NCBI GenBank assembly: GCA_003450815.1
Contig: DMES01000037.1
Location: 831 to 64,830 of the forward strand
DNA: 64,000 nucleotides
Source: Elusimicrobiota bacterium
Lineage (GTDB): Bacteria > Elusimicrobiota > Elusimicrobia > Elusimicrobiales > UBA9959
Reading direction: 5' to 3'
A model generated the notes under the pieces. That model did not search any database, had not been told where the DNA came from, and was given only the letters and a program-made list of their open reading frames with translations. Shown piece by piece: positions 28,034-52,033 of this stretch; the stretch's first letter is position 1, and the number at the start of each line of letters is the position of its first letter. Position numbers and translations under genes: made by a program.

Positions 28034-28954
28034 TTAAAATCTTTCGGGAGTTATGGAGAAAAGGTCTTTTTGTGAGGCCTTGAGTTCTCCGCCGCCGTGA
28101 ACTTTCAGGTAATCAGGCCTGGCCCCGCAGCACGCGGGCTTAAGGCTGCAGCGCGAACAGGCGGGCCGGCGCGCCTTTGGGGCTATGCCGTCTTCAAGCA
28201 CCCTGTCGCCGCGGCGCCAGCGCTGGAATTCAAAGGAAAACCCCTCAAATTTTTCCAGCGCGCAAAGCGGCATATTCTGCACCACCGCCTTGCGGCCTTT
28301 GAGCTTGAGGTTTGCGAGTGCCAGTTTGATAAACGGTGAAACCTGCGTATAGCGCGGCACTATTCCAGGGGCTTTGAGGGCTCTGCCTTTATTGCGCACA
28401 AAAGTAAAATTTACAAATGCGGCGCGCGGAAAATTTGCCGCCGTCCAGAGCGCGAACTCGGGCAGCTGGCGATAGTTTTCGCTTGAGATGATGTGGAAAA
28501 ACCGCAGCTTTTCCTCGGCGCCGGCGGCTTTAATGTTAGCAAGGCCTTTAAGGGCCATCTGGAATTTTATGCTGCGCGTTACTTTTGCGTAAATTTCAGC
28601 GCGGTGGGAGGGGAAGTTTACGGTAAAAAAATCGATATCAGCGGCCGCTTTCCGGCAAAAAGCGCGATCTGAGAGCGCCACGGCGTTTGTGGAAAGCATG
28701 AAATTTTTTACCCCCGCGGCTTTAAGCGCCTTTATCCAGTTAAAAAAATCCGTGCCGGCGGTGGGTTCGCCTCCGCCTTCAAGGCTTACGGCTTTCACCC
28801 CCGCGGTTTTTATCAGGGCGGCTGTTTTCAGGGGATCTTGTCTCTTTCCATCCGGAGGATTATGGCAGTAAAGGCAGTAGAGGTTGCAAGTGTGGGCCAT
28901 GCTGACACAGGCCTGTTCGCTTATCCATTTATTTTTTTGTCCACAGTTCGCCAT
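28034..28954 (-). CDS. radical SAM protein, compact family with C-terminal CX2CX5C
   Basis: 306 aa. Has CNLYCLYC, EGGGEPT, MPLCALEKFEGF, and the C-terminal CSRCSLKPACCGARPDYLKVHGGGEL. It is paralogous to seven genes in the 39.6-52 kb operon. Confidence 0.8.
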   Translation of the reverse strand: MANCGQKNKWISEQACVSMAHTCNLYCLYCHNPPDGKRQDPLKTAALIKTAGVKAVSLEGGGEPTAGTDFFNWIKALKAAGVKNFMLSTNAVALSDRAFCRKAAADIDFFTVNFPSHRAEIYAKVTRSIKFQMALKGLANIKAAGAEEKLRFFHIISSENYRQLPEFALWTAANFPRAAFVNFTFVRNKGRALKAPGIVPRYTQVSPFIKLALANLKLKGRKAVVQNMPLCALEKFEGFSFEFQRWRRGDRVLEDGIAPKARRPACSRCSLKPACCGARPDYLKVHGGGELKASQKDLFSITPERF

Positions 28955-29237
28955 ATTGCCGGGTTCATTATACCATTAAGAATTACCGTTGCGAATTGAA
29001 TAAGTGAACAGGACGAATATGATGATTCGCAGGTTCAATTCGTGATGTCCATTGTCATTCGCTTTGAGTATTGTTTCATTCAGCGGCCCCGGTGACAAGA
29101 CGCTGCTTGCCCCAGACACACCCGGAAAAATAGGTGGGACTTTAGACCCATAATATTATGGGTCTTTTGGCACTTACTTCCCCCAACTCCGCACATTATC
29201 ATATTATGGTGCACAAGCAGTCATAAAGGATAAAACA

Positions 29238-29804
29238 ATGAAAAAAACGAAAGCTGCGCTGCTCTCCCTGTCGGTCGTCTTGTTCTCGTCGGTGTTTTCT
29301 TTTTCCCAGCAGGTAAATGAAATCTCATCTCCTTCTCTGGACAATATCGCGTCCGAGGCGGCCTCCGCTTTCAGTCTGAGCGCAGAGCTCAATGTCCGGG
29401 AAAAACTTTCCGCCGGGCTCCCTCTGCCGCTGCCGGAAAACTCAGACAGGGCCCAGCAGTCGATCACTCCACTCATTGAGGACCCTCTGCGCGTCAAGTG
29501 TATCCTGAAACTCATAAATGATATTTATGCCGGCGTGCACCTGCCGTTCAAAGAGGACGGGCAGATATTTTCGAATAAGGAAAAAATCCTGCCGCCCCAG
29601 GCCGCCGGCTATTATCGTGAATATACGCTTATAGTGCCCACTCAGTATCCCGGCACTGTCGTGGTGGGCGGCGTTACCTACCAGGTCCCTCCGTCTCTGT
29701 CAAAGCGCGGCCCTGAGCGGATGGTTATAGGCGGAGGAAAGACGATTTATTACAGCCCGGACCACTACAAGAGTTTTATAGAAATACAGGTGGTGAATAG
29801 TTGA
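29238..29804 (+). CDS. secreted guanyl-specific ribonuclease (barnase / RNase Sa family)
   Basis: 188 aa. Signal peptide MKKTKAALLSLSVVLFSSVFSFS. The C-terminal domain carries YYREYTL, KRGPERMV and YYSPDHYKSF (catalytic Glu/Arg/His contexts). Confidence 0.8.
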   Translation: MKKTKAALLSLSVVLFSSVFSFSQQVNEISSPSLDNIASEAASAFSLSAELNVREKLSAGLPLPLPENSDRAQQSITPLIEDPLRVKCILKLINDIYAGVHLPFKEDGQIFSNKEKILPPQAAGYYREYTLIVPTQYPGTVVVGGVTYQVPPSLSKRGPERMVIGGGKTIYYSPDHYKSFIEIQVVNS

Positions 29805-30220
29805 TGGAGCCGCCGGCCTTCGCATTAACACAGGAGGCTGTTGTAAAACTTGACGGTCCGGTTGCAAAAGCCGGGGAGGTGGAAAAAATTTTCACCGACC
29901 TCGGCTTTTTCTTTTGCCGGGTTGATTGCGCGGGCCTGGGCGGCAAAGGGGAGTTTATAACGGCCGTGGGAACGGGTTTCGGTTTTAGCGGCGTGGACGC
30001 GCACAATTGGGATTCGCTTGAGGATTCTCTGGGCTCGCTGCCATGTTTCAGAAAAGCCGCCGGTTACGCCGCGGTTCTTTCAAATTTTTCAGGTCTGCCG
30101 CCTGGGGAGCTGGCGCTTTTTGAAGAAGTGGTCCGCGATGCGGCGGCCGCGCTTTGGAGAAATTACTCCCTTCGGCTGAAAGTCGTTTTACTGAAACCCG
30201 AAAAATCCAGCCGGAAATAA
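29804..30220 (+). CDS. barstar-family ribonuclease inhibitor
   Basis: Its ATG overlaps the RNase stop (TGATG). HNWDSLEDSLGSL matches the barstar NxDALWDxL core. Its position is that of an immunity gene. Confidence 0.7.
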   Translation: MEPPAFALTQEAVVKLDGPVAKAGEVEKIFTDLGFFFCRVDCAGLGGKGEFITAVGTGFGFSGVDAHNWDSLEDSLGSLPCFRKAAGYAAVLSNFSGLPPGELALFEEVVRDAAAALWRNYSLRLKVVLLKPEKSSRK

Positions 30221-31481: not shown

Positions 31482-32252
31482 ATGGCAAATAGAAAATTTG
31501 TGATTTTAAGACTTAAACTAACCAGAAAGAGCTGTCTTTTCGCCCTGACGCTCGCTTTCCTGTGTTTTCATCCGCGGCCACTTGGGTCGGAAACATTGAC
31601 GCTTACCACTTACTATCCGGCCCCTTATGGCGCCTATATCAGCCTGCTTACCACCCAGCAGACCCTGCTTGCCCGCGACGGCAGCAGCGTGGGTATAGGG
31701 ACATCGGGGCCTGTTCCCGCTAATATAAAGCTTTCGGTCCATTCCGGAACTACCCAAGGGAATATCTCAATCAGCGGCGTATCAGACAACGGCGCCACTT
31801 ATTCAAGTTTAACTCTAAATGACAATAATTTGGACAACAGGATAAATGCATGGGGGCTTGCCCATAAAAGGGCTCTTGGAACTGTGGAGGATAATGACTT
31901 CCAGATAGTGAGATGTAGAGGGGCTTGTGCGACACGTATGGATTTAGCTATTGACAATACCACCGGCAACGTCGGAATACAAACAAACAATCCAGCGTAT
32001 AAGTTCGATGTGTCAGGCGATGCCAGGGTGACTGGCGCCCTCAGAAGTCAGTGCACTGTCGTATGGTACTCCGGCACGACGTACTGCCCCGCCACCTATT
32101 CTTTTATGAGCAATTTGGGCGGTGGAGCCAGTTGCATTTCCGGTGGGCAATTGTTCCTTGGCGGAAATGTTAATACCCCGACTAGCTGGGTGCCGCATAG
32201 AGAAGAGAATTGTACCGGCAATATGCTTTGCTGCAGAGTACAAACAAACTAA
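31482..32252 (+). CDS. secreted/anchored protein with tail-fibre-like GNVGIxTNNP motif and Cys-rich C-terminus (paralogue 1)
   Basis: 256 aa. Has a hydrophobic N-terminus, TLTTYYPAPYGAY, IDNTTGNVGIQTNNPAYKFDVSGDARVTG, and 6 Cys in the last ~70 aa. Confidence 0.7.
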   Translation: MANRKFVILRLKLTRKSCLFALTLAFLCFHPRPLGSETLTLTTYYPAPYGAYISLLTTQQTLLARDGSSVGIGTSGPVPANIKLSVHSGTTQGNISISGVSDNGATYSSLTLNDNNLDNRINAWGLAHKRALGTVEDNDFQIVRCRGACATRMDLAIDNTTGNVGIQTNNPAYKFDVSGDARVTGALRSQCTVVWYSGTTYCPATYSFMSNLGGGASCISGGQLFLGGNVNTPTSWVPHREENCTGNMLCCRVQTN

Positions 32253-32312
32253 ACTGGCTTAAATGTAGGGGGGTTGTTATTGAGCTTTTCCCCGGCAATG
32301 ATAGGGGGCTTT

Positions 32313-33080
32313 ATGGAAAATGAACCATTTATAGTTTTAGAACTTGAATTGACCAGAAAGCGCTGCCTTTTCGCCCTGACGCTCGCTTTTCTGTGTTTCC
32401 ACCCGCGTCCGCTTGGGTCGGAAACACTGACGCTTACCACTTACTATCCGGCCCCTTACGGCGCCTATGTAAGCCTGCTTACCACCCAGCAGACCCTGCT
32501 GGCCCGCGACGGCGGCAGTGTGGGCATCGGGACATCGGGGCCTCTACCAGCGAATGTAAAGCTTTCGGTCCATTCCGGAACTACCCAAGGGAATATCTCT
32601 ATCAGCGGCGTATCAGATAGCGGCGCCACTTATTCAAGTTTGCAGTTGAATGACAATAATCTGGCAAGCACAAATGCCTGGGGAATTGCACATAAAAAGG
32701 CCCTTGGCACTGTGGAGGATAATGATTTTCAGATAGTAAAAGTTAATAATGGTGTCGCAACAGCTGCCAGACTTGCCATTGATAATACCACCGGCAATGT
32801 CGGTATAGGTACAAACAATCCATTGTATAGGTTCGATGTGTCAGGCGATGCCAGGGTGACTGGCGCCCTCAGAAGTCACTGCACTGTCGTATGGTACTCC
32901 GGCACGGCGTACTGCCCCGCCACCTACTCTTTTATGGGCAACCTGGGCGGCGGAGCCAGTTGTATTTCTGGCGGGCAATTGTTCCTTGGAGGAAATATTA
33001 ATTCCCCGACCAGATGGGTGCCGCATAGAGAAGAGAATTGTACCGGCAATATGCTTTGCTGCAGGATGCAAATAAATTGA
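32313..33080 (+). CDS. paralogue 2 of the tail-fibre-motif protein
   Basis: The start at ATG 32313 (MENEPF..) is placed by alignment with paralogue 1 and the AGGGGG SD. The N- and C-terminal thirds are near-identical to 31482..32252, while the middle diverges. Confidence 0.7.
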   Translation: MENEPFIVLELELTRKRCLFALTLAFLCFHPRPLGSETLTLTTYYPAPYGAYVSLLTTQQTLLARDGGSVGIGTSGPLPANVKLSVHSGTTQGNISISGVSDSGATYSSLQLNDNNLASTNAWGIAHKKALGTVEDNDFQIVKVNNGVATAARLAIDNTTGNVGIGTNNPLYRFDVSGDARVTGALRSHCTVVWYSGTAYCPATYSFMGNLGGGASCISGGQLFLGGNINSPTRWVPHREENCTGNMLCCRMQIN

Positions 33081-33296: not shown

Positions 33297-33785
33297 TTGA
33301 AAGAAAAAATATCAGTCAGCGTAAGTTTAAAAAGCTATAAGGCCGATACTATCCGCTACGCGGCTTATGCGGTGAGCGGGGGGGCCTATGTTTTGCTCGG
33401 GCCGGGAAAAAAAGGGGAAGTGGAGGCGGCTTTTGAACCCAAGCCGAATGCGTCCGCAAAATATCGCGCCGGCCTTCAGAAGCTTTTTGAGTCGGAGTTG
33501 AGGGACGAAAAAATGCGTTCTGAAATAGCTGATGCCAACAGGGAACTAAGGGAATTTATGGTTCTTAAAGCTCTTTCTGCCGCCGACGACGCGGGAACTC
33601 AGGCAGGCGATTATGCCGGGCTTACCCCCGCCCAGGAAAAGGAATTGGACGCGCTTATTGCCGAGGTTGAGCGCGAAATAAAAACCGAAACCGCCGGCAA
33701 AGAGCGTAAAGATCCGCTTGGCATAACCAAAACATGGGAAGAAAAACATGGCTCAGAACCTTTTAAAAATAAAAACAAAAAATAG
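33297..33785 (+). CDS. HxsD-like small protein with charged C-terminal extension
   Basis: TTG start with GAGGAGGA 9 nt upstream. The N-terminus ISVSVSLKSYKADTIRYAAYAVSGGAYVLL parallels 35196..35516. It overlaps the following HxsB-like gene by 38 nt. Confidence 0.55.
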   Translation: MKEKISVSVSLKSYKADTIRYAAYAVSGGAYVLLGPGKKGEVEAAFEPKPNASAKYRAGLQKLFESELRDEKMRSEIADANRELREFMVLKALSAADDAGTQAGDYAGLTPAQEKELDALIAEVEREIKTETAGKERKDPLGITKTWEEKHGSEPFKNKNKK

Positions 33786-35211
33786 TGTCGCGCAAACCAA
33801 TCCGCCGCATTTTTATTGGCGGGAAGTAGACGGGGCTTACCTCATAAGCAATGATTCCGGCTGCCATGCGTGGCTGGACGCGGCGGCTTTTAAGCGCTTT
33901 TCCGCCGGCACGCTCAGGGAAAAAGACAAAGCCTTTGAGGAGCTTTCTTCAAAAGGTTTTATCAGAGACAGGCTGGATTTCGCGGATTTGGCCGCAAAAT
34001 GGAAGAGCAAAAATTCCCACCTGTCCTGCGGGCCGGGGCTGCATATTTTTGTAATGACGCTGCGGTGTGACCATAAGTGCCTTTATTGCCAGTCAGGGGC
34101 CATAAGCCTGAGCGCCAAAGGCGCGGATATGAAATGGCCCGCGGCCAAAAAAAGCGTGGATTTCGCATTTCAGACCACCGCTCCCGGCCTGACTATTGAG
34201 TTTCAGGGCGGCGAGCCGCTGCTTAACTGGGCGGTCCTTAAAAAAACCGTTTCCTACGCCAGGAAAAAAGAAAAGCTTTCGGGTAAACGCCTTAATCTTG
34301 GCCTTGTTTCAAATTTCAGCCGGATGACCGAAGGGTATGCCCGGTTTCTGCTTGAAAACGAGGTTTCCCTCTGCACCTCGCTTGACGGCCCGGCTGACCT
34401 GCACAACAGAAACAGAATTTGCTCCGGCGGCAATGCCCACGTGTCGGTACGCAAATGGCTAAGGTATTTCACGCGCAGGAACACCGGGCAGGGAGCCGGG
34501 TACAGGATTTTCAAGCCCAGCGCTCTGCTTACGGTCACCAAGTTTTCGCTGGGCCGTGCGCCCGAGATAATTGATGAATATGCCGGGCTTGGGCTTGAGG
34601 ATGTCTTTATACGGCCGCTTTCGCCAATCGGTTACGCTAAAAACAGCTGGAGCGCCATAGGCTATACGGCCGCGGATTTTGTGGCTTTCTACAAAGAAAG
34701 TCTTGGATATATACTGAAACTGAACCGTAAGGGCGCCGTTATAAGGGAAAAAATGGCCGCCATGCTCCTTGAAAAGATAATCGGTTTCAGTGACCCCGGG
34801 TATCTGGACATGCGGTGTCCCTGCGGCGCCGCGGTGGGGCAGATAGCTTACAACTACAACGGAGATCTTTACACCTGCGATGAGGGCCGCATGGCGGCCT
34901 GGGAGGGGGACGATCTTTTTAAAATAGGCAATGTGTTCAGGGACAGTTATAAAAAAGCCGTTTCCTGCTCCACCGCCAGGTCATGCGTGGCCGCTTCCGA
35001 GCTGCATTTACAGCCGGCGTGCTCAAGGTGCGCTTACAGCCCTTATTGCGGTGTTTGCCCCGTGTATAACTACGAAGCGCAGGGCTCGTTGTGGGGCAAT
35101 ATGCCCGCAAACGAGAGATGCGCTTTCATGAAAGGCATATTCGGTATTCTGTTTTCCAAACTAAAAAATTCCAAAGACAGGGAGATACTGCAAAAATGGG
35201 TGAAAAAGTGA
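33748..35211 (+). CDS. radical SAM/SPASM peptide maturase, HxsB-like (copy 1)
   Basis: 487 aa. It has an ~100-aa N-terminal extension (..YLISNDSGCHAWLDAAAFKRF..), CDHKCLYC, EFQGGEPLLN, and a SPASM-type C-terminus CPCGAA..YNYNGDLYTCDEG..ACSRCAYSPYCGVCPVYN. Confidence 0.7.
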   Translation: MAQNLLKIKTKNSVAQTNPPHFYWREVDGAYLISNDSGCHAWLDAAAFKRFSAGTLREKDKAFEELSSKGFIRDRLDFADLAAKWKSKNSHLSCGPGLHIFVMTLRCDHKCLYCQSGAISLSAKGADMKWPAAKKSVDFAFQTTAPGLTIEFQGGEPLLNWAVLKKTVSYARKKEKLSGKRLNLGLVSNFSRMTEGYARFLLENEVSLCTSLDGPADLHNRNRICSGGNAHVSVRKWLRYFTRRNTGQGAGYRIFKPSALLTVTKFSLGRAPEIIDEYAGLGLEDVFIRPLSPIGYAKNSWSAIGYTAADFVAFYKESLGYILKLNRKGAVIREKMAAMLLEKIIGFSDPGYLDMRCPCGAAVGQIAYNYNGDLYTCDEGRMAAWEGDDLFKIGNVFRDSYKKAVSCSTARSCVAASELHLQPACSRCAYSPYCGVCPVYNYEAQGSLWGNMPANERCAFMKGIFGILFSKLKNSKDREILQKWVKK

Positions 35212-35516
35212 AAAGTCATTCGCGTAGAATTATGTTCTCTAAACAAATATACGCGGCCGAAGCGGTTAAACTTGCGGCTTATGTTTTTTCAGACAAAGCC
35301 GATATAAAATTAGCATCCTCCGCCGGCGGCGTCGAGGCTGAAGTGTCCTGGGAAGGGAAGGATTGCGCGGTCGCCGGAGAATTTGCGAACGAGGTTCTTA
35401 ACCAGCAATGCCGGCTTGATCTGGCCGTGAAAAATGGAAAGGTCGCAAACATGATAGTTACCAAGGCCTTGCTTTCCGCTTCCGGTGAAACAGTGAAAAA
35501 GAGGGGGAAACAGTGA
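35196..35516 (+). CDS. HxsD-like small protein (copy 2)
   Basis: About 106 aa. ..FSKQIYAAEAVKLAAYVFSDKADIKL.. resembles 33297..33785. It overlaps the upstream stop. The start is uncertain (35196, 35208 or 35232). Confidence 0.5.
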   Translation: MGEKVKSHSRRIMFSKQIYAAEAVKLAAYVFSDKADIKLASSAGGVEAEVSWEGKDCAVAGEFANEVLNQQCRLDLAVKNGKVANMIVTKALLSASGETVKKRGKQ

Positions 35517-36529
35517 AAAAGTGGACTGTTCTTGTTTTTATAGCGCTTTTGGGGCTTATACTTGGCCTGCGTTATCTGAGTAAAAAGAATGAGGCAAAAG
35601 TGGAACAGAACGCAGGCATGCAGCTGTCCGAACCGGTGGGGGTTGCTCTGCCGCAGGGGGTGAATACCTACTCTCCATCAGGCTCTGTGGCGTCTTCTCC
35701 CGCAGACTCTTCCGCCCTGGATGCGGCCGCTTCCAAAGGGGCTTGTGAGGGCGGCGCTCTTAACGACATACTGTCTTCGCACGGAGTGTCATGGGGTTAT
35801 TCTACAAAAGGCGTTGTTTTTGAACCGTCTGAAACTGAAAAGATCTATGAGGCTTTGGAAAATTATTTTTCCTGCGAGGCTGTCGCCATGGACGATATGG
35901 CTGCATGTGGGCCCTTAACGACCGATTCGGGTGATAAAGGCGATGTGCGTTTCAGTAATCCAAGATATAAATGTTCCGATAGCGCGAACAGGGTGCTGTT
36001 CAAGGCCTATATGGCGGGGATGCACGGCAATGCTTCGGCTTGTGCGTCATTTCTTGCAGGCGATAGTGTCAAGGACATCAAGTTGGATACTGTTGAGTTT
36101 TGCAATATAGCCGCAAAGGGGATGGAGAATATCTGTGTCGGCCTTGCTCCCTTTCTTCCGGCCTCAAAAAAAGCGGAATGCCTGACGGTTTTTCCAGCTA
36201 AAAAAACCGACTGTAGCGGCAAAGAATTCTGTCTGGATAATTACAAAATATATTCCGCCATCAAGGCCAGAAATCCGGGCCAGTGCCCTGAGAAGTACCG
36301 GCCCGCTTGTGAAGCTTTCTTCTCTAAGCGTCAGGCTTCCTGTTCAAATCTCATCACGAAGGCCAGTAAACTGTATTGCTCATCCCTTGCCGTGTTAAAA
36401 AAGAAACAAGCCAGCGGCATGTTTTTGTCTGAGCAAGAAAAGAAAGATGCCGAAATACGGAAAAAGGAAGAGGAAAGAATAATGCAGGAAGTAAATAAAA
36501 ATGCGAGGAAAATGCTGGGTAAGGAGTGA
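35513..36529 (+). CDS. membrane-anchored cysteine-rich protein, hypothetical
   Basis: GTG start overlaps the previous stop (GTGA) and has GAGGGGG upstream. It has one N-terminal TM helix. I count 14 Cys. The tail is Lys/Glu-rich. Confidence 0.65.
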   Translation: MKKWTVLVFIALLGLILGLRYLSKKNEAKVEQNAGMQLSEPVGVALPQGVNTYSPSGSVASSPADSSALDAAASKGACEGGALNDILSSHGVSWGYSTKGVVFEPSETEKIYEALENYFSCEAVAMDDMAACGPLTTDSGDKGDVRFSNPRYKCSDSANRVLFKAYMAGMHGNASACASFLAGDSVKDIKLDTVEFCNIAAKGMENICVGLAPFLPASKKAECLTVFPAKKTDCSGKEFCLDNYKIYSAIKARNPGQCPEKYRPACEAFFSKRQASCSNLITKASKLYCSSLAVLKKKQASGMFLSEQEKKDAEIRKKEEERIMQEVNKNARKMLGKE

Positions 36530-36536
36530 AAATTTT

Positions 36537-36869
36537 ATGGCTCAAAAAAAATCCAAGCTTAAAAAAAATATAAAAATGTTCCTTAACAGCGAAGAAGGTA
36601 AAATGCTGGATGCCGATATTGTTAAAACCGGCATCGCCTTGGGTATTATGGGCGCGGTCATGGCGGATCAGGCTGCGGCTCAGGCCGTTGTACATTCAAA
36701 CTATTTTTTTAATTCAGGCCCAGGCAGTGGTTCAGGCCATGCCAGCCACCAGAGCCACGGTTCGCACGGTTCGCACGGTTCGCACGGCTCACACGCCTCG
36801 CACGGTTCGCACGGTTCGCACGGTTCGCACGGTTCGCATGGCTCGCACTCGCGCGGCGGCTGGTGCTGA
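36537..36869 (+). CDS. His-Xaa-Ser repeat peptide (HxsA-like candidate precursor)
   Basis: AAGGAG is 9 nt upstream of ATG 36537. It is 110 aa: [21 protein letters not shown] / [29 protein letters not shown] / ..GPGSGSG / HAS HQS (HGS)4 HAS (HGS)5 HSR / GGWC. Confidence 0.8.
36738..36854 (+). repeat. 9-bp tandem repeat (CACGGTTCG and variants) encoding the His-Xaa-Ser triplets
   Basis: Read directly. There are 12 full 9-nt units plus a terminal CAC TCG CGC. Most units are identical at the nucleotide level. Confidence 0.95.
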
Positions 36870-39624: not shown

Positions 39625-39636
39625 ATTCCCGTCACT

Positions 39637-44250: not shown

Positions 44251-45671
44251 AAAAAACCATGTCGCTTATGCCTTTTGGTTTTGCGCCGGTTACCGGAGGG
44301 GTGTTGGTTTCCAACGACTTCGGCGGCTGGCTGGTTCTGGACGGAAGGGAGTTCAGGAGCCTGAAAGACGGAAGCTTTGCGCGCAAGAAAGGGCTTTGCG
44401 CCAAACTTGCACGGCGCGGTTTTATAAAAGAGCGGCTTGATTTTGAAAGCCTCGGGCAGGATATGGGCGGACTTCACAGGCACAGTTTCGGCGGCCCGAG
44501 CCTGCACATACTTGTGGTAACGCTGAAGTGCAACCACGCCTGCGTTTATTGCAGGGCGGTAAAAGCCGGCGGGTTTGAAAAAGCCGTGATGAGTCTTGAG
44601 ACCGCCAAAAAAAGCATAGACATGGCCTTTTCCTCACCGAATAAAAATATCGTTATTGAGTTCCAGGGCGGCGAGGCGCTCATAAACTGGCCGGTAGTCA
44701 GGAACGCCATTCTTTACGCCCGGAAGAAAAACACGGCATACGACAAAAACCTTGAAATTTCGGTTGTAACGAATCTTAGCCTGATGGACGAGGAAAAATT
44801 TTCTTTCCTTACCGGTCACGGCGCCGGGGTATGCGCCTCTCTTGACGGCCCCGCTTTTTTGCACGACGCCAACCGGCGCTACGCTGGAGGCTCTTCGCAT
44901 GAAAAGACCTTGTATTGGCTGAAAAAAGCGCTTTCCTTGAAACATGGCGGGGAAAAAGACTCGCTCCCTTCGGCTCTAATGACGGCCACAAAGCTTTCAC
45001 TGAAGTATCCGGAAGAAATTGTTGAAACTTACCGCAAGATCGGGCTGGGCGGTATATTTCTGCGTCCGCTATCGCCGATAGGCTTCGCGCGGTCTGTTTG
45101 GGGCGATATCGGCTATAAGTCTGAGGAATTCGGTTCTTTTTACCGTTCGGCGCTTGAACATATTCTCAGGCTGAACCGGCGCGGCGAGCGTTTTGTGGAG
45201 CGCAATGCCGCCATAGTGGCCCGGAAAGCGCTTAAAAAAGAAGACCCCAACTTTCTGGATCTGCGTTCTCCGTGCGGAGGAGCCATTGGACAGCTAGCCT
45301 ATAACTGGGATGGCGGGGTTTACACCTGCGACGAAGGCAGGATGGCAGGTTTCGGCCGGGACGATTTTTTCAGGCTCGGCAGCGTTTACAAAAACTCTTA
45401 TCAGGAAATAATCAGCGCTCCCGCGGCCAGAGTTTGCGCTTTGGCTTCCTGTCTAGAAAACCAGAGCGCCTGCTCGCGCTGCGCGTGGAAGCCTTTTTGC
45501 GGAGTTTGTCCCGTGTATAATTATGAAACCCAGGGGTCTCCGTGGGGAGATATAGTCACCGGGGACTGGTGTAAAATACAAAAAGGCATTTTCTCGGCGG
45601 TTTTTGACGCCTTGTCAAAACCCTCCAGCCGTAAGATTATAGAGGGCTGGCTGGACACAACGGATAGGTAG
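44247..45671 (+). CDS. radical SAM/SPASM peptide maturase, HxsB-like (copy 3)
   Basis: 474 aa. ATGA overlap with the upstream gene. Has ..VLVSNDFGGWLVLDGREFRSL.., CNHACVYC, EFQGGEALIN, and CGGAIGQLAYNWDGGVYTCDEG..ACSRCAWKPFCGVCPVYN. Confidence 0.7.
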   Translation: MKKTMSLMPFGFAPVTGGVLVSNDFGGWLVLDGREFRSLKDGSFARKKGLCAKLARRGFIKERLDFESLGQDMGGLHRHSFGGPSLHILVVTLKCNHACVYCRAVKAGGFEKAVMSLETAKKSIDMAFSSPNKNIVIEFQGGEALINWPVVRNAILYARKKNTAYDKNLEISVVTNLSLMDEEKFSFLTGHGAGVCASLDGPAFLHDANRRYAGGSSHEKTLYWLKKALSLKHGGEKDSLPSALMTATKLSLKYPEEIVETYRKIGLGGIFLRPLSPIGFARSVWGDIGYKSEEFGSFYRSALEHILRLNRRGERFVERNAAIVARKALKKEDPNFLDLRSPCGGAIGQLAYNWDGGVYTCDEGRMAGFGRDDFFRLGSVYKNSYQEIISAPAARVCALASCLENQSACSRCAWKPFCGVCPVYNYETQGSPWGDIVTGDWCKIQKGIFSAVFDALSKPSSRKIIEGWLDTTDR

Positions 45672-45803
45672 ATAGGCTGTAGGCAGTTAGCCTGTGGGAG
45701 GAAATTTTTCGCGGTCATGCGAAGTGTAGAGCGTTCTGGGCGCCTTGGTCGGTTAATGCGTAACGACTAACAGCCTTCAGTCTATAGCGTAAACAACCTA
45801 TTT

Positions 45804-46691
45804 ATGCCTGATATATCTTTTTGGAACAAATGCAACAGCAAGTGCGTGATGTGTACAAACATGGCTTCTTTTTCCTCGCAGGACAGCTCGCAGTACGGCT
45901 TGAAGAGGCAGATACGGAAAATGGAAAGCTATCTGAAGGGGGAGAGCGTATATTTCAAGAACGCAGACAAATCCGATTTTTTAAGCCTTACCGGCGGCGA
46001 GCCCACCTTACACCCCGATTTTTTCCAGCTGCTCGCCTATTTCAGGCGGAGGCTTGCCGGGACGCCCATCAGGCTTCTGACAAACGGAAGGACGCTTGCT
46101 GATACCGGGTTTACCGCTAAATTGCTGAAAACAGCCGGTCCTCCTTTCTGTTTTATAATTCCTCTGCATGGCTCCGGCCCCTCTCTGCACGATAAGGTCG
46201 CCGGAGTGAAAGGCTGTTTTATGCAGACCATGAAAGGGCTGGAGAACCTGTTTTCCATGGCCGGCGGCAGGGATATAGAAATACGCGTTGTTCTTCATAA
46301 GTTGAACGCCGTGGCTTTGCCTGACATCCTGAAACTTCTGCTTAAAAAATTCCCCCGCACTTCCCGCTACCGCGTGGTAGTTATACACTATGAGATAGAG
46401 GGGGAGTCGGAAAGAAACCACCCCCTGCTGGCGTTACGGTTTAAAAATTCTGTCCGGGCCGTGCGCGCCTGCGTGCGCCTTCTGCCAAAATTCGCGCATC
46501 TTGAGCTTTATCATTTTCCACTTTGTGTTCTTCCGCCGTCTTTGCGTGCCCTGGCCCGCGTCACCCTGCCCCGCGCGGACAGAATATATCCGCCCTCAAA
46601 ATGCGGCCGCTGCGCGCTCAAAGCAAAATGCCTGGGGCTTATGCGTGCATACCACAAAAAATTCGGGGCCTCGGAGCTGAAAACTATATGA
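45804..46691 (+). CDS. radical SAM protein, compact CX2CX5C family
   Basis: 295 aa. Has CNSKCVMC, LTGGEPTL, FPLCVLPPSL, and CGRCALKAKCLGLMRAYHKKFGASEL. Confidence 0.8.
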   Translation: MPDISFWNKCNSKCVMCTNMASFSSQDSSQYGLKRQIRKMESYLKGESVYFKNADKSDFLSLTGGEPTLHPDFFQLLAYFRRRLAGTPIRLLTNGRTLADTGFTAKLLKTAGPPFCFIIPLHGSGPSLHDKVAGVKGCFMQTMKGLENLFSMAGGRDIEIRVVLHKLNAVALPDILKLLLKKFPRTSRYRVVVIHYEIEGESERNHPLLALRFKNSVRAVRACVRLLPKFAHLELYHFPLCVLPPSLRALARVTLPRADRIYPPSKCGRCALKAKCLGLMRAYHKKFGASELKTI

Positions 46692-47839
46692 AACCGGTCT
46701 CTCTTTCCTTTCTTGCGGTTTTGGTTCTTTGGGCGGTTTCCGTGGTAAGCGCCGATATCGCCACTAATAAAATAACCAACCGGAAAATTATTCTGGGCGC
46801 GAAAATACTTTTGGGGGCGTGCATTGCCCAGGCTTTCGTTACGTATCTCGGTTACAAAGGGGATACCCCCGTCTTTTTGCTGTGGGAGTTTTATCCAATG
46901 CTGGCGCGTCACGCGCTGTGGTCGGCGCTGGCCGGCATTATCTTGTGGTACGCTGAAATATGGCCTGCAGGAGACGCCAAATTTTTTATTCTTGTTTCGG
47001 CTTCATTGCCTGTTGTTAATTCGCAGATCCGGAATTTTCCGAATTATCTTTTTCTCTCCCTGCTTGTGAATATTTTCGTTCTCGCCTCCATTTTCGCGGT
47101 GTGCGGGTTTATTTCTTCAGGTATGCGCTCCGCTTCGCCCGGGGATTTTTTAAGCGGACTTTGGACGGATATGCGAAAAAGGTTGTCATCTCTCGGATCT
47201 GGAAAAAGCCGTCTGACAGCCCTGGCATACCTGTTTAATATGATTTTTGTCTTTCTCATGCAGCAGATATTCGCGTTTGAGGCCGCCGGGGCGTTAGGCA
47301 GGCTGTTTTCACGCGTGGAAGTCCTTTATTTCTTTATTTTTATACTTTGGGGTAAGATAGGCGGAGTTTTCAAAGGCCGGCGCCTGTTTTACCTTACAAC
47401 CTGCTGTTACCTTGTGTATTTTTTTGCCGGTTATTTCTTTTTCTATGACCGCCTGGCGCTCATGATAATCACGGCCATAGTCAATGTGCTTAAATTCAGC
47501 CTGCTTTTGTTTTTCGGGCGTTTCATGCTTGAATTCCTGATGGAAAAAAAGGATCTGATCTATGTGGGCGCTGAGGAGCTCTCGCCGGGCATGGTGCTTT
47601 CTTCAAAAGAGAGCGCAAGGCTTAAGGCGAACCCCGTTTTTGAGGGCGCCTTTGATGATTCTTTCAGAGACGGGCTTGTGGCGGAACAGGTGGAACTCCT
47701 GAGAAGCTGGCTTAAAAAGCTGCCGCTTGAGAATGCCAAAATGGAAATGGTCAAAGGCCGGCCTTTCGCTCTTTGGATATCCGCGGGCGCCGCCATTTCG
47801 CTGCTGTTTGACAGAAATCTGGTGCATCTTCTGAAATGA
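46688..47839 (+). CDS. polytopic membrane protein with A24 (prepilin/TadV-type) aspartyl peptidase motifs
   Basis: ATGA overlap at 46688; the track's upstream extension runs inside the previous gene. SADIATNKITN matches D-x5-IPN, WPAGDAKFF matches GGGDAKL, and KGRPFALWISAGAAISL matches the PFGP-type motif. Extra helices and a ~90-aa soluble insert are present. Confidence 0.55.
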   Translation: MKPVSLSFLAVLVLWAVSVVSADIATNKITNRKIILGAKILLGACIAQAFVTYLGYKGDTPVFLLWEFYPMLARHALWSALAGIILWYAEIWPAGDAKFFILVSASLPVVNSQIRNFPNYLFLSLLVNIFVLASIFAVCGFISSGMRSASPGDFLSGLWTDMRKRLSSLGSGKSRLTALAYLFNMIFVFLMQQIFAFEAAGALGRLFSRVEVLYFFIFILWGKIGGVFKGRRLFYLTTCCYLVYFFAGYFFFYDRLALMIITAIVNVLKFSLLLFFGRFMLEFLMEKKDLIYVGAEELSPGMVLSSKESARLKANPVFEGAFDDSFRDGLVAEQVELLRSWLKKLPLENAKMEMVKGRPFALWISAGAAISLLFDRNLVHLLK

Positions 47840-48765
47840 AAAAGAAAATAGCGAAGAAGCTCAAAATTGTGGTTTTTACCGGCTACGCCTGCAATAATAA
47901 CTGCCGGTTCTGCATTGCCGCCGATAAGCGTCTGCTGCCCCAGAAAACCACGGCGGAGCTTTCGCGTGAAATTTATCAGGCGCGCAATAAGGGCGCGCAA
48001 ATACTTGAAATCATAGGCGGCGAGGCCACGATAAGAAAAGACTTCTCTCACATGGTTTCTCTCGCCAAAAAGATAGGCATTCCTGAGGTTATATGCGCCA
48101 CCAACGGCCGTGTGTTCTCGGATTTAAGCCGCGCGCGCGAAATAGTGGAGGCGGGAATGGATACCCTTGTTTTTTCCGTGCACGGCGCCAAAGCGGCCGT
48201 GCATGACGCTTTGACCCGAAGCCCCGGCAGTTTCAGCGAGTTGTGCCGCGGCCTGGAAAACTTAAAAAAAATCGGGTTCTCGAACATAAATGGCAATACG
48301 GCCGTTGTAAAAACCAATATGCGCGGGCTGCCGGAGATAGCAGGGTTTTACGCGGAACATAAAGTGCGCAATGTAGAATACATTTTCGTCGATTCAAATT
48401 CCGGCGGTGCCAATAATAATTTTTTTGAGCTTGTTCCCCATATTTCAAAAGCCGCGCCTTTCATGAGGCGGGCTCTGGAGATAGGGCTTAAGGCCGGTTT
48501 TGGACAGTGGAAAGTGCGTTATGTGCCCCTTTGCCATTTTACCGGCTATGAGGCTCAGATAAGCGAAATCAACGAGAAGGCTCTTTTTCTTACCGAGCAT
48601 TGGGCGCCCGATTTTAAAAACCTCGATGTGGTAAAATCCAGAGCCGCTGTCGGCCGGAGAAAAACTGAAAAGTGCCTTGGCTGCCGGCTTTACGGAACTT
48701 GCGAAGGTATTTGGGTGGAATATCTTAAAAACTACGGAGACGAAGAGCTGCATCCGGTACAATAA
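47836..48765 (+). CDS. radical SAM protein, compact CX2CX5C family
   Basis: 309 aa. ATGA overlap. Has CNNNCRFC, IIGGEATI, VPLCHFTGYEAQI, and CLGCRLYGTCEGIWVEYLKNYGDEELHP. Confidence 0.8.
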   Translation: MKKKIAKKLKIVVFTGYACNNNCRFCIAADKRLLPQKTTAELSREIYQARNKGAQILEIIGGEATIRKDFSHMVSLAKKIGIPEVICATNGRVFSDLSRAREIVEAGMDTLVFSVHGAKAAVHDALTRSPGSFSELCRGLENLKKIGFSNINGNTAVVKTNMRGLPEIAGFYAEHKVRNVEYIFVDSNSGGANNNFFELVPHISKAAPFMRRALEIGLKAGFGQWKVRYVPLCHFTGYEAQISEINEKALFLTEHWAPDFKNLDVVKSRAAVGRRKTEKCLGCRLYGTCEGIWVEYLKNYGDEELHPVQ

Positions 48766-49839
48766 ATGCGCGCGCCAAACCATCTTGTGATATACCTGAG
48801 CGGCAGATGCAATCTTGCCTGCGTTTACTGCTATGCCAGGTTTAAAGGCGCGCCCATAAGCCGTAAACGCCTTCTGGCCGCTTTGGACATTTTTTTTAAA
48901 AACGGCATTACAGGAAAAAAAATTACTTTTTTAGGCGGAGAGCCCGCGCTGCATCCCGCCCTGCTGAAGGCGGCGGTTTTAAGAGCGCGCCTGAAGGCCG
49001 GACGGGATTTGCCGATACAGGTTTTCACCAACGGCACCATGCTCACCCGGTCTCTTTTAAACTTTTTGTCCGGCCGGGGGGTGAAGATTGTTCTCAGCCT
49101 TGACGGGCCCGCGTCCGAAACCGACCTTAACAGGCGCTTCAAGGCCGGCGGCGGCTCGGTTTTTTCCTCGGCGGTCAAAAATGCGGGGAACAGGGAAAAT
49201 ATTGTCGTGAGCATGGTTGTTACTCCGCAAAGCGCCTTAAGGCTGGCGGAAAACATTGAGAGCCTGCTGGCCCTTGGGTTTAAAAGGCTTGCCTGGGCGC
49301 CTGACATCTCCACCCTTTGGAATCAGCGCTCGCTGGCGGAGCTGAAAAAATCGGCGCTGAAAGCTAAGGCCGGCTACTTCAAGGCTTTAAGAAGCGGCGG
49401 CCGGATTTACGAGATAGCCAATATATATGAAATACTTAAGCTTGCGCGCGGCGGCGGCAAGCTGCCCGGCTGCATGAATATAACGCTTGGCCCGGATGGA
49501 TTCTTTTATCCTTGCGATAAAATTTTTGCCGGAGGGCTTGACCGCATAAAGCGTTTCAGGGTTGGGGCCGATGGAACCGGGAGAGAAAAATTTTTTCGCT
49601 TCGCCTCCGCCCTCGGGGCCGGCTCAAAGCAGGTACTGTGCGCTGTGGCGCCCTGGGCGCTGCGCCATTTCTCTCCGGGAGGCCCTGGGCCTCAGGACGC
49701 GGCGGCGCTTAAGCGGCAATACCAGGCGCGCAAGACGGTTCTGGCCTGGCTTGAAGGGATGGCCGTAGAAGGTTGTAAATATCCGGCTTTCCGTTCGGTG
49801 CATGGTTTAAAAAGCTGTAGTCGCCAAAAAATCAGATAA
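48766..49839 (+). CDS. radical SAM protein with partial SPASM/twitch region
   Basis: 357 aa. Its start abuts the previous TAA. Has CNLACVYC, FLGGEPAL, and GCMNITLGPDGFFYPCD. Confidence 0.75.
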   Translation: MRAPNHLVIYLSGRCNLACVYCYARFKGAPISRKRLLAALDIFFKNGITGKKITFLGGEPALHPALLKAAVLRARLKAGRDLPIQVFTNGTMLTRSLLNFLSGRGVKIVLSLDGPASETDLNRRFKAGGGSVFSSAVKNAGNRENIVVSMVVTPQSALRLAENIESLLALGFKRLAWAPDISTLWNQRSLAELKKSALKAKAGYFKALRSGGRIYEIANIYEILKLARGGGKLPGCMNITLGPDGFFYPCDKIFAGGLDRIKRFRVGADGTGREKFFRFASALGAGSKQVLCAVAPWALRHFSPGGPGPQDAAALKRQYQARKTVLAWLEGMAVEGCKYPAFRSVHGLKSCSRQKIR

Positions 49840-49877
49840 AGCTGATTTTTTGGGACTTTTTAAGTTAAAATCAAAAT

Positions 49878-51140
49878 ATGGAGCCGAAAAATAATAATAA
49901 GTGTTACGAACTTATACTGAATTATAACTGTAACGCGCGTTGTCTGTTTTGCTCGCAGGGCTCCTTTGATAAGTCTCTTAACGCCGATTTTAAGCTGACG
50001 GCTGAAAACATCTACGGGGCGTATAAAAGCGGATACAGGCGCCTGGGGCTTACCGGCGGAGAGCCGCTTATCCGGACTGACATCCTGAAAGTTATCTCGC
50101 TCGCCAGGTCTGTCGGATTTAATTTTATCAGGGTTCAGACCAACGGTATAAAACTCTCCGACCCGGCTTTCTGCCGTCGCCTGGCGGGCGCCGGGCTTAC
50201 TTTCTGCAAATTATCGCTGACCTCTGACAGGCCGGCCGAACATGACCGCCTGCTGGGGGTAAGCGGCGCCTGGGAATCCGCCGTTCGGGGCGCCAAAACC
50301 CTGCGCAAACTAAAAATACGCCTTGGCAATAATATTCTGATAAATGCCCTGAATTATAAGCGGCTGCCGGAAATAATCCGGTCATTTCTGGAATTGGGAA
50401 TAACAAACTTTGTGGTTATTTACCCGGTTTATATCGGCAGCATGGCTTCGCATTCGGCCGAGCTGGGTGTGAGCCTGGGAGAATGCGAAAAATATTTTGC
50501 CGAAGCCGCCGACCTTATGGACAAATCCGGGCTGGCGGGCGAAATTCTTTTTTTGAATGTGCCGCCCTGCTTTTTGAAAGGCCGCGAGTCTTTAGCCATA
50601 GGGCTGGATCTTTTTAATACGGTGGTTACAGACCCGGCGGGAGGAAAAAACGATCTGGATGTCACCGCCAACCGGGCCAAGGTGCGCGCTCCCGCCTGCC
50701 GGTATTGTTCTCTCAGGCGTCGCTGCGCGGGGGTGGACGCCCATTATGCGGAGATATTGGGCTTTGACGGTTTTAAGCCGGTCCTTAAACCCCGCCTCGC
50801 GCAAGGCGCCGTTCGCGAAACACCGCGCGTATTCTTTTCCGATAACGAACTTTGCCTTATTGAAATACTTAAAAAAGAAAATCCTTCCTCCACCGCGAGG
50901 GTTTTAAAACTGGCAAAAAACATCGTCCTTTGCCGGGACTGCTCCGACGGCAACTCTGTGCTGAACGCCGCGCAAAGCCTTGTAAAAAAAGGCCTTGTTG
51001 AAAGCGTCTTTGAGCGCGGGCATTATTACTGGAGGCTCATCAAGAGCACAGGAGAGCGGGTCACAGGTCACAAGTCACAAGTCACAAGTTACAAGAGCAT
51101 AAGAGTACAGAAAAATAATGTCGCGGGAGAAGAAGACTGA
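49878..51140 (+). CDS. radical SAM protein (compact CX2CX5C family) fused to a C-terminal winged-helix-like domain
   Basis: 420 aa. Has CNARCLFC, LTGGEPLI, PPCFLKGRESL, and CRYCSLRRRCAGVDAHYAEILGFDGFKP. A ~90-aa domain follows (..NELCLIEILKKENPSSTARVLKLA..AAQSLVKKGLVESVFERGHYYWRL), then a tail encoded by GTCACAAG word repeats. Confidence 0.75.
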   Translation: MEPKNNNKCYELILNYNCNARCLFCSQGSFDKSLNADFKLTAENIYGAYKSGYRRLGLTGGEPLIRTDILKVISLARSVGFNFIRVQTNGIKLSDPAFCRRLAGAGLTFCKLSLTSDRPAEHDRLLGVSGAWESAVRGAKTLRKLKIRLGNNILINALNYKRLPEIIRSFLELGITNFVVIYPVYIGSMASHSAELGVSLGECEKYFAEAADLMDKSGLAGEILFLNVPPCFLKGRESLAIGLDLFNTVVTDPAGGKNDLDVTANRAKVRAPACRYCSLRRRCAGVDAHYAEILGFDGFKPVLKPRLAQGAVRETPRVFFSDNELCLIEILKKENPSSTARVLKLAKNIVLCRDCSDGNSVLNAAQSLVKKGLVESVFERGHYYWRLIKSTGERVTGHKSQVTSYKSIRVQKNNVAGEED

Positions 51141-52033
51141 TGGCTCTCTTGCGTCTGTTTGCCAAGTGCTGCCAGAAATGCGTTTTCTGCTCATATCCCC
51201 GGGAAAAGGAAAGCGGCCGCGCGGCTGAGGAAAAACTTTCGTATTGGCTTAAGTCCGCCGCCGCCGTGAAAGCCCCGCTTATACAGATTTCAGGCGGGGA
51301 GCCGTTGCTGGCCGAGCCTTACGATCTGCTCAAGCTTGCGGCCTTCTGCGCGCGGTTGGGCCGCCGGGTGGAGATCCAGACCAACGCTTCCGGCATTTCG
51401 GGCAGGTTTTCCGAGACGGAACTACAAAAACTGATTAAAATAATTTCCGGGAGCGGCGGCTACTTTAATATTAATTTTTCCGCCGATACTCCCGGGAGCG
51501 ACCTTAAAATTACCCGGACACGCGGCGCTTTTGCCCGGCGCCTTGAAACGGTTAAAAAAATGCTTTCACAGGGCGCGAGCGTGCGTCTGACTTTTGTGAT
51601 CACTAAGCTCAATTACCGGCGCCTTGAAAAATTCGGTTTTTTTGTCGTAAAAGAGTTGAAAGGGGTGTCCTGGGTCCAATTCAGTTTTGTAAAGGGGAGC
51701 GGCCGTGCGGCTTTTGCGAAGAAAATAGTCCCGCGATACGCTATGGCCGCTCCGTATCTGCGCCGTGCGCTTGCGGTTTGCGGGGCCGCCGGTCTTAAGT
51801 GCGAGGTGGATCATATCCCGCCATGTTTTCTCGGTGAGTATTACCGCTGCCATGTGGATATCGGGAAAATGAAGCTTGGTTCGCCAGGGCCTCATTTGGC
51901 CGAGAAAGAGAAACTGACAGAGTGCCTCGGCTGCGGGCTTTACAGTGGTTGTTCAGGCCCCAGGAAAGATTATATAGCCATTTACCCCGGTGCCGGCCTT
52001 ACTGGCGCCGGGATTTACGGCGGATTAAAATGA
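51140..52033 (+). CDS. radical SAM protein, compact family (divergent)
   Basis: 297 aa. TGATG overlap. Has CCQKCVFC, ISGGEPLL, IPPCFLGEYYRC, and CLGCGLYSGCSGPRKDY. Confidence 0.7.
   Translation: MALLRLFAKCCQKCVFCSYPREKESGRAAEEKLSYWLKSAAAVKAPLIQISGGEPLLAEPYDLLKLAAFCARLGRRVEIQTNASGISGRFSETELQKLIKIISGSGGYFNINFSADTPGSDLKITRTRGAFARRLETVKKMLSQGASVRLTFVITKLNYRRLEKFGFFVVKELKGVSWVQFSFVKGSGRAAFAKKIVPRYAMAAPYLRRALAVCGAAGLKCEVDHIPPCFLGEYYRCHVDIGKMKLGSPGPHLAEKEKLTECLGCGLYSGCSGPRKDYIAIYPGAGLTGAGIYGGLK

Follow-up and report, generated by a model that had tools for sequence, protein, structure and literature searches.

Eight HxsC-like radical-SAM paralogues of an Elusimicrobiota gene cluster probably represent anciently diverged groups in a modular relative of the HXS system

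Why should a single bacterial locus hold eight similar radical S-adenosylmethionine (SAM) enzymes, and are they recent copies of one another or old, separate types? The question is raised by a 64,000-nucleotide stretch of an Elusimicrobiota bacterium genome (70-kb metagenome contig DMES01000037.1, assembly GCA_003450815.1; below called the window). An original prediction, made from the letters and their translations, had described eight paralogues of about 300 residues with a shared cysteine signature, had attributed them to local tandem expansion followed by specialisation, and had named HxsC, an enzyme of the HXS (His-Xaa-Ser) system, as a candidate subfamily. We find that the eight proteins, here called C28034, C39637, C42315, C43315, C45804, C47836, C49878 and C51140 (Table 1), form one family and that they probably represent orthologous groups of old divergence, all belonging to the HxsC branch of SPASM/twitch-type radical-SAM enzymes.

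All eight open reading frames (ORFs) are present, and every motif string that had been quoted for the middle and the C-terminus of the proteins was found in them. In a MAFFT alignment the three cysteines of CX3CX2C, a GGE motif, two asparagines, a mid-protein cysteine and the cysteines of CX2CX5C are invariant in all eight proteins, as are the glycine after CX2CX5C and a tyrosine five residues beyond it (CX2CX5C-x-G-x4-Y). Since they form invariant alignment columns, the shared motifs are positionally homologous. Across 114 sequences of the family 11 columns are invariant, including all seven cysteines (CX3CX2C, the mid-protein cysteine and CX2CX5C-x-G-x4-Y). Other parts of the description need correction. 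The N-terminal C-N motif occurs as described except in C51140, which has C-C; the size holds for seven proteins (295-347 residues), while C49878 reaches 420 residues through an extra C-terminal domain; and only half of the proteins (C39637, C42315, C43315 and C47836) have the full G..E(F/L).P tail, which is one residue off in C28034, C45804 and C49878 and weak in C51140.

An all-against-all BLASTP comparison gave significant matches for every pair of paralogues, and in all but three pairs the alignments span most of the length, with 20-33% identity and E values of 1e-7 to 5e-47. A profile built from the eight proteins and scanned over the ORFs of the window returned exactly these eight with full coverage and 300-379 bits, the next best ORFs being other radical-SAM genes with 39 bits or less; as the profile was built from the members themselves, the gap between the scores is informative and their absolute values are not. 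The full-length alignment and the significant matches of all pairs confirm a real paralogous family. Convergence, that is, unrelated radical-SAM subfamilies sharing short cysteine motifs, could be suspected because CX3CX2C is common among radical-SAM proteins and because the MoaA model ties with the HxsC models for C43315. Most pairs, however, align over nearly the full length including the C-terminal domain, with E values down to 5e-47, the 11 columns are invariant across 114 sequences, and the five other radical-SAM genes of the array score at most 38 bits against the family profile, compared to at least 300 bits for the eight. We regard convergence as practically negligible.

All eight proteins pass the Pfam model for radical-SAM enzymes (PF04055, 48-96 bits with a threshold of 29.5), and among the NCBIfam models each of them matches HxsC (TIGR03977) or HxsC4 (NF038332) best or equally best, HxsC being the top match for C28034, C45804, C49878 and C51140. 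HxsC was thus the right lead. A distribution over unrelated radical-SAM subfamilies is not seen; the alignment is full-length and the best or joint-best matches are of the HxsC type throughout. A neighbour-joining tree was built from 52 sequences and bootstrapped 100 times; it unites the C45804 clade with three canonical HxsC proteins in all 100 bootstraps and has the other seven paralogues in separate clades. The C45804 clade and canonical HxsC also have in common a spacing of 25-26 residues between the mid-protein cysteine and CX2CX5C. The canonical proteins used for comparison (Klebsiella, Mesorhizobium and Leptospira plasmid proteins, 370-386 residues) contain the same four extra cysteines as the window proteins (P-x-C...CX2CX5C-x-G); the signature of the original prediction is therefore largely that of the HxsC family. 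The Y...G..E(F/L).P tail, at least partially present in seven of the eight window proteins, is missing from canonical HxsC. C42315 and C47836, which match HxsC4 across the whole model, would best be described as relatives of HxsC4 and not as members.

Seven of the window paralogues each fall into an orthologue clade of their own with 99-100% bootstrap support. C51140 stands alone in the tree, which has no orthologue of it among its 52 sequences; its orthologues were identified by BLAST in the related loci L088 (83% identity), L089 (58%), L090 (53%), and L092 and L094 (52% each). Overall, orthologues share about 33-86% identity, compared to 20-33% among the window paralogues. The values are 51-87% for C28034 (at least 94 clusters in Elusimicrobia), 44-62% for C39637 (48-62% in about 22 clusters among the matches listed), 60-73% for C42315, 33-36% for C43315 (clade bootstrap 99%), 44-62% for C45804, 58-68% for C47836 and 47-86% for C49878 (58-86% in at least 117 clusters); the first homologue listing was dominated by orthologues of C28034 and C39637, the second by those of C49878. 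Homologues of the window proteins bear Elusimicrobia names. A ninth clade, 39637-like-2, occurs in other genomes and is absent from the window. One metagenome contig (L004, 8257-15693) holds a block of a C39637 orthologue, HxsB2, the extra radical-SAM gene and a 39637-like-2 gene, adjoining six tandem B12-binding radical-SAM genes.

A recent local tandem expansion, in which the eight copies were duplicated in the locus of this lineage and then diverged, would explain why seven of them are adjacent in one co-directional array. In addition, C42315 and C47836 form sister clades (99% bootstrap), which suggests that some duplications took place within the family history in this cluster type. The paralogues are, however, only 20-33% identical, other Elusimicrobia genomes contain closer orthologues of each, the tree pairs none of the window copies as sisters, and the C45804 clade lies nearer to proteobacterial HxsC than to the other seven. 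As orthologues are far more similar than paralogues and none of the window copies are sisters, the proposed tandem origin is not supported as a recent event, and we consider it highly improbable. The paralogues instead appear to be ancient and specialised members of a modular, 'super-Hxs'-type locus. In line with this, the spacing between the mid-protein cysteine and CX2CX5C is fixed within clades and differs between them (25-26, 33, 35, 43-49, 44 or 47 residues), and the residues around the motifs are conserved clade by clade, which fits a long-standing specialisation under purifying selection. The predicted specialisation is thus plausible from the clade-specific spacing and flanking residues and from a winged-helix domain found only in C49878.

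As predicted, seven of the eight paralogues lie in one operon: 20 genes (33297-53280) form an array in the same direction, separated by gaps of -38 to +187 nt. The eighth, C28034, is encoded on the opposite strand 4.3 kb upstream of the array. For comparison, 11 Elusimicrobia loci were obtained from a genome scan with C39637 orthologues and further loci from exact-protein look-ups; L017-L084 were dropped as generic radical-SAM matches, with neither a full-length HxsC-like module nor a HxS peptide. In L006 and L011 the genes follow the order pil-like, HxsD1, HxsB1, HxsD2, p338, HxsA4, HxsB2, C39637, memb and C28034, continuing with four U32 genes, C42315, HxsB3, C45804, C47836 and a further radical-SAM gene. 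In L006, L007, L008, L011 and L016 the C28034 orthologue is part of the cluster and comes behind the membrane-protein gene; in L006, L011 and L091 C28034 is followed by the large and then the small U32 subunit, a conserved order with translational coupling. Because it stands inside the cluster in L006 and L011, the minus-strand trio of the window (C28034 and its U32 pair) would belong to the same system and have been relocated here. Orthologues of the second U32 pair are found in L006, L009, L010, L011 and L012.

Other loci contain only parts of this set. L089 and L090 have the order pil-like, HxsD1, HxsB1, HxsD2, p338, C42315, C45804, memb, C47836 and C49878, ending with one other gene, C51140 and the cysteine desulfurase; a six-frame scan of ~21 kb revealed no HxS-repeat ORF there, and in L089 another HxsB-like gene lies ~8 kb downstream of the query gene. 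L088 has the block C45804, memb, C47836, C49878, C51140 and cysteine desulfurase alone, and L091 has C28034 with two U32 pairs alone, beside a PBP1 gene. The core five paralogues (C42315, C45804, C47836, C49878 and C51140) thus also occur in clusters without a HxS peptide within 10 kb. The locus is modular. A core module would comprise the pil-like protein, HxsD1, HxsB1, HxsD2, p338, the core five, memb and the cysteine desulfurase; an add-on module the (Ser-His-Gly)n peptide HxsA4, an extra radical-SAM gene, HxsB2 and C39637; and a third module C28034 with a UbiU-like U32 pair, which in the window is found on the other strand upstream of the array. C43315 and HxsB3 would be further additions to the cluster. 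Taken as a whole, the eight genes most likely belong to a cluster that is built of modules and inherited vertically in Elusimicrobia, and that is related to the four-gene HXS system but enlarged.

The same modularity could mean that separate pathways are merely co-located: only C39637, perhaps together with C43315, would mature HxsA4, the core five would act on another substrate (for example the pil-like protein, p338 or a non-peptide molecule), and C28034 with its U32 pair would be independent. The presence of the core five with HxsD1, HxsB1 and HxsD2 and without a HxS-repeat ORF in L089 and L090 is consistent with this, as are the isolated blocks of L088 and L091 and the orthologue numbers, which among the matches listed are several-fold higher for C49878 and C28034 than for C39637. 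On the other hand, the window, L006, L011 and L013 each have one uninterrupted array with overlapping stops and starts, HxsA4-like peptides lie beside C43315-, C42315- and C49878-like genes (L092, L094, L107, L118), and HxsA4 may lie elsewhere in the genomes that lack it within the 10 kb visible on each side. Separate pathways are a serious alternative, quite possible though short of probable.

In the HxsA4 precursor a conserved leader ([17 protein letters not shown]) is followed by a hydrophobic stretch, by 12 H-x-S repeats, most of which are SHG, and by the tail SRGGWC; eight orthologues share the leader. A metagenome scan with the HxsA4 alignment yielded 28 loci (L092-L119). Their HxsA-like peptides have the common leader F(L/F)xSEEGK...KT..ALGIxG followed by (SHG)n and by tails that vary (SRGGWC, GSY, GSW, GQW, FSF, CRGGWCNPRC, (F/N)(S/G)CY and others), and are usually preceded by HxsD1, HxsB1, HxsD2 and p338. 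The number of HxS repeats (9-18) did not correlate with how many HxsC-like genes could be seen in a locus (2-6), which is weak evidence as the loci are truncated. HxsB2 and C39637 were seen only in loci that also contain HxsA4 or end before that position. Because of this co-occurrence, and because the core five are found without a HxS ORF nearby, HxsA4 would be the natural substrate of some of the enzymes, above all of the HxsB2-C39637 pair, and the core five may have a different one; it is uncertain whether all eight act on the His-x-Ser repeat. Two observations on the peptides stand by themselves: in L098 two HxsA-like peptides are encoded in tandem, and in L107 three C42315-like genes lie in a row beside one HxsA-like peptide.

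Candidate alternative substrates are the pil-like proteins, as they are found upstream of HxsD1 even where HxsA4 is missing. Wherever an Elusimicrobia locus extends to that position, also in loci without HxsA4, a homologue immediately precedes HxsD1, and this adjacency suggests that the pil-like proteins belong to the system. They have a hydrophobic N-terminus followed by the invariant stretch SE(T/S)L(T/Q)LTTYYPAPYG(G/A)Y, and CC(R/K)xQ at the C-terminus. The Cys-rich protein p338 was considered as a one-site HxS substrate and rejected: its 'SSHG..WGY' is found in the window, L089 and L090 and is not kept in other orthologues. In L088 (5713-6360) a secreted protein with ~10 repeats of AGYGACVxxGLxxAYCxxAx is encoded directly upstream of the stand-alone block from C45804 to the cysteine desulfurase; it may be a different repeat substrate.

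The CX3CX2C motif of each paralogue would bind the SAM-cleaving [4Fe-4S] cluster. The second cysteine motif had been predicted to be the core of a SPASM/twitch auxiliary-cluster motif, and indeed hhalign places it on the SPASM CX2CX5C of HxsB (98.5% probability for the whole alignment of the family with the HxsB profile, 269 columns). In contrast to the seven cysteines of the SPASM motif (CX9-15GX4C...CX2CX5CX3C...C), the family has only four invariant extra cysteines, one upstream, after a proline or leucine, followed by CX2CX5C. BtrN has a two-plus-two pattern of cysteine ligands, unlike the pattern here. The four extra cysteines would bind one auxiliary [4Fe-4S] cluster, the number expected for twitch enzymes, and we infer a truncated, SPASM-derived, twitch-like C-terminal domain. 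The AlphaFold2 (AF2) model of C39637 has a predicted local distance difference test score (pLDDT) of 94.7 and a predicted template-modelling score (pTM) of 0.92. By sequence and fold its nearest solved structures are BlsE, GDGT-MAS, SkfB, MoaA, SuiB and PqqE, and also viperin, BtrN and anSME. The superposition on these is limited to the core (~220 residues, template-modelling (TM) score 0.47-0.53), and in the structure comparison no solved structure matched the C-terminal domain of the model well.

The additional domain of C49878 is confined to this protein and its orthologues (residues ~321-388), contains invariant cysteines (C...x25...CRDC) and is modelled by AF2 in the order H-H-H-beta-beta with a pLDDT of 86-94. 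As Foldseek returned only generic winged-helix folds (BlaI/MecI/MarR/eS10-type, E >= 4e-3), an assignment as the peptide-recognition domain RRE is unsupported, though possible. The extension could be a peptide-recognition or a DNA-binding domain.

An indication that the paralogues may work together comes from the family at large. A profile search of 1.84 billion representative proteins gave 4,835 matches at E <= 1e-30, the top ones being proteins in which one chain combines two or three HxsC-like modules of full length, in some cases with partial modules in addition. In these fused proteins a CX3CX2C is present in every full module and a CX2CX5C in nearly all of them. Where a source is named it is Nanoarchaeota, Woesearchaeota or Omnitrophota, and the annotation of these proteins goes no further than 'radical SAM protein'. 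Three of the fused proteins, P0127 (Omnitrophota), P0128 and P0133, have a second module that can be assigned with confidence to the C47836 type (45-53% identity); an assignment of the other fused modules to window clades was not retained, as most were ambiguous with score margins below 20 bits. Because family members recur as gene arrays or as fused multi-module proteins, use in sets is a general trait of the family, and the fused modules support joint action of the paralogues, short of proof. The related clusters of two metagenome-assembled genomes (MAGs) also encode a protein of 783-784 residues with two radical-SAM modules, the second of them HxsC-like (L007, 14252-17277; L008, 15029-17383); in L007 it is preceded by a gene for a Dph6-like ATP-pyrophosphatase (PF01902, diphthamide synthase family).

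Several observations weigh against the placement of the eight proteins in old HxsC-type groups of one cluster. None reaches the curated HxsC cut-off of 267.9 bits (67-154 bits), nor the HxsC4 cut-off of 500 bits, to which C42315 and C47836 come closest with 152 and 141 bits at full model coverage. All eight lack the N-terminal domain of 95-110 residues found in canonical HxsC. The orthologue identity of C43315 is low, and the trees are neighbour-joining and not maximum-likelihood trees. The auxiliary cluster is predicted from the invariant cysteines only, no SPASM or twitch model reached its cut-off on any of the eight, and no SPASM match was present in Pfam or among the up to 25 NCBIfam matches listed per protein, in contrast to HxsB1, which matches SPASM TIGR04085. 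Finally, the related loci were seen 10 kb to each side of the query gene, so that the lack of HxsA4 in L089 and L090 means none nearby, and gene adjacency among related genomes partly reflects common ancestry instead of function.

The remaining genes of the cluster are listed in Table 1. It contains 13 radical-SAM genes in total, the eight HxsC-like, three HxsB-like and two others, rS37057 and rS48766, the former with only 19 bits against the HxsC-like profile. The cysteine desulfurase directly follows the C51140 orthologue in L088, L089, L090, L092 and L094. The membrane protein memb is conserved in every related cluster and may be a leader peptidase or an exporter; its orthologue in L005 has a weak precomputed match to Peptidase_A24 (prepilin peptidase). 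The position of p338 is kept in all related clusters, either as HxsD2-p338-HxsA4 or as HxsD2-p338-C42315, and its alignment shows nine invariant and two nearly invariant cysteines and a Lys/Glu-rich C-terminus. Each U32 pair directly follows an HxsC-like gene (C28034 for the first pair, C39637 for the second); the small, Cys-rich subunits have no family match. A radical-SAM enzyme and a U32 pair may constitute an O2-independent hydroxylase module. Between C28034 and the array lies a pair of genes for a barnase-like ribonuclease and barstar, which is syntenic with PhoH/PIN in several Elusimicrobia MAGs. A scan for promoters and terminators gave nothing usable.

Table 1. Features of the window. 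Positions refer to the window; scores are in bits, with cut-offs in brackets; aa, amino acids.
Feature	Position	Strand	Matches and remarks
PhoH/PIN	24692-26026		syntenic with the barnase-barstar pair
U32 pair 1, large and small (Cys-rich)	26974-27930 and 26150-26977	minus	PF01136 48; weak UbiU/TrhP similarity
C28034, HxsC-like, 306 aa	28034-28954	minus	PF04055 48.5; TIGR03977 67.5 (top match)
Barnase-like ribonuclease and barstar	29238-30220	plus	
Two paralogous secreted pil-like proteins	31482-32252 and 32274-33080	plus	no family match; upstream of HxsD1
HxsD1, HxsD-like protein 1	33297-33785	plus	TIGR03976 38.5 (cut-off 50); PF27806 (HxsD) match
HxsB1, radical-SAM/SPASM maturase	33748-35211	plus	TIGR03978 468 (cut-off 370); TIGR04085 36 (cut-off 27)
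HxsD2, HxsD-like protein 2	35196-35516	plus	TIGR03976 44.8 (cut-off 50); PF27806 match
p338, membrane-anchored Cys-rich protein	35513-36529	plus	no family match
HxsA4 precursor, 110 aa	36537-36869	plus	NF038313 56.6 (cut-off 55)
rS37057, radical-SAM gene, not HxsC-like	37057-38157	plus	PF04055; PapB best, 107 (cut-off 340)
HxsB2, HxsB-like radical-SAM/SPASM	38221-39624	plus	TIGR03978 354, slightly under the cut-off (370)
C39637, HxsC-like	39637-40680	plus	HxsC4 98.6; HxsC (TIGR03977) 92.8
U32 pair 2, large and small	40737-41582 and 41583-42278	plus	PF01136 47.8; weak UbiU/TrhP similarity
C42315, HxsC-like, HxsC4-like type	42315-43220	plus	NF038332 152 across the whole model; TIGR03977 103.9
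C43315, HxsC-like	43315-44250	plus	MoaA, HxsC4 and HxsC tied at 77-82; TIGR03977 76.8
HxsB3, radical-SAM/SPASM maturase	44247-45671	plus	TIGR03978 445 (cut-off 370)
C45804, HxsC-like, nearest to canonical HxsC	45804-46691	plus	TIGR03977 154.1, highest of the eight
memb, polytopic membrane protein, 383 aa	46688-47839	plus	no family match
C47836, HxsC-like, HxsC4-like type	47836-48765	plus	NF038332 141; TIGR03977 74.2
rS48766, radical-SAM gene, not HxsC-like	48766-49839	plus	PF04055 54; PapB best, 113 (cut-off 340)
C49878, HxsC-like with extra C-terminal domain, 420 aa	49878-51140	plus	TIGR03977 81.2 (top match)
Winged-helix domain of C49878	50838-51041	plus	
C51140, HxsC-like	51140-52033	plus	TIGR03977 78.1 (top match)
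Cysteine desulfurase, SufS/CsdA-type, last gene of the array	52030-53280	plus	PF00266 244; SufS subfamily 247, below cut-off

From these components we propose that each paralogue would catalyse a different radical step, or act at a different site, on a peptide or protein substrate before its export, that the paralogues probably act as hetero-oligomers, and that HxsA4 would be the substrate of at least the HxsB2-C39637 pair. A bolder version would see in the cluster a vertically inherited assembly line, common to the phylum, that makes a novel, heavily cross-linked (Ser-His-Gly)n peptide or pil-like product with up to 13 radical-SAM enzymes, two U32 pairs and the cysteine desulfurase. Its HxsC-like modules would be obligate hetero-oligomers, which would explain the fused two- and three-module relatives, of which those with names come from DPANN archaea and Omnitrophota, and canonical HXS would be a reduced offshoot. 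We offer this version tentatively and consider it rather doubtful. Homology, conserved motifs, orthology, gene order and modularity are observed, and cluster binding, chemistry, substrates and export are deduced; the sequence and comparative data identify a family and not its function.

The HXS system was reportedly defined by Haft and Basu. Its canonical four-gene form, hxsD-B-C-A, blocks the entry of phage DNA (Li et al. 2026, PMC13128918). HxsB, HxsC and HxsD are all required for the maturation of HxsA, HxsC binds HxsD, and the S-H-R-S-S motif in the HxS repeat of HxsA is modified by +8 Da (PMC13128918). The chemistry of this change is unsolved, and attempts to reconstitute the system in vitro did not succeed (PMC13128918). 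In a survey, 99.7% of canonical systems belonged to Pseudomonadota and >99.8% had four genes (PMC13128918). Full-text literature searches (Hxs names; Elusimicrobia with radical SAM) returned no paper on multi-paralogue Hxs clusters and none mentioning HxsA4 or HxsC4.

The window cluster might likewise serve anti-phage defence, with matured HxsA4 being exported to block phage DNA entry and the extra enzymes elaborating the effector. The canonical effector is an exported HxS-repeat protein (PMC13128918), and the locus has HxsD-, HxsB- and HxsC-like genes together with a HxS-repeat peptide with a hydrophobic N-terminal segment. However, HxsA4 has no peptidoglycan-binding domain, canonical systems consist of four genes in nearly all cases, and PADLOC, which is older than the HXS paper, gives only generic radical-SAM matches at the viperin level. 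Moreover, the chromosomal neighbourhood (BamA, PhoH, barnase-barstar) is conserved and common to distant Elusimicrobia MAGs, and the genes are widespread in the phylum. A conserved neighbourhood and a phylum-wide spread would be less typical of a mobile defence island than of a cluster with a housekeeping or envelope role, and we think a role in defence unlikely.

HxsC, one of the two radical-SAM enzymes that mature the HXS anti-phage effector (PMC13128918), is part of a much larger family of ~4,800 representative clusters at E <= 1e-30, all examined members of which have the four-cysteine auxiliary motif. One lineage keeps eight distinct HxsC-like types, and beside them a (Ser-His-Gly)n peptide of great simplicity. 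This is natural material for dissection: the paralogues are separate, the substrate is short and repetitive, and the specificity regions are defined by sets of orthologues. Radical-SAM enzymes may, in addition, be paired here with U32 proteins of the UbiU/UbiV-like kind.

Compared to known systems, the cluster is set apart from the radical-SAM-rich loci next to nitrogenase paralogues that were described in groundwater Elusimicrobia (Meheust et al. 2020, bioRxiv 10.1101/765248). Both come from the same phylum and have up to 13 radical-SAM genes in one neighbourhood, but those loci are built on NifHDK paralogues and B12-binding or HemN-type radical-SAM genes, while the array at 33.3-53.3 kb lacks Nif-like genes and has radical-SAM genes of HxsB and HxsC type. 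Another counterpart is the rare Hxs variant catalogued as HxsC4/HxsA4 (NF038332/NF038313): the precursor passes the HxsA4 model, and two paralogues match HxsC4 end to end. Like the HXS system, the array also holds HxsD-like genes and a HxS-repeat peptide, and the canonical context of HxsC is reflected by C39637, which starts 12 nt after HxsB2, and by C45804, 132 nt after HxsB3; the remaining six paralogues are not directly downstream of any HxsB gene. It differs from canonical HXS in having eight HxsC-type copies instead of one, and in its host, Elusimicrobia as opposed to Pseudomonadota.

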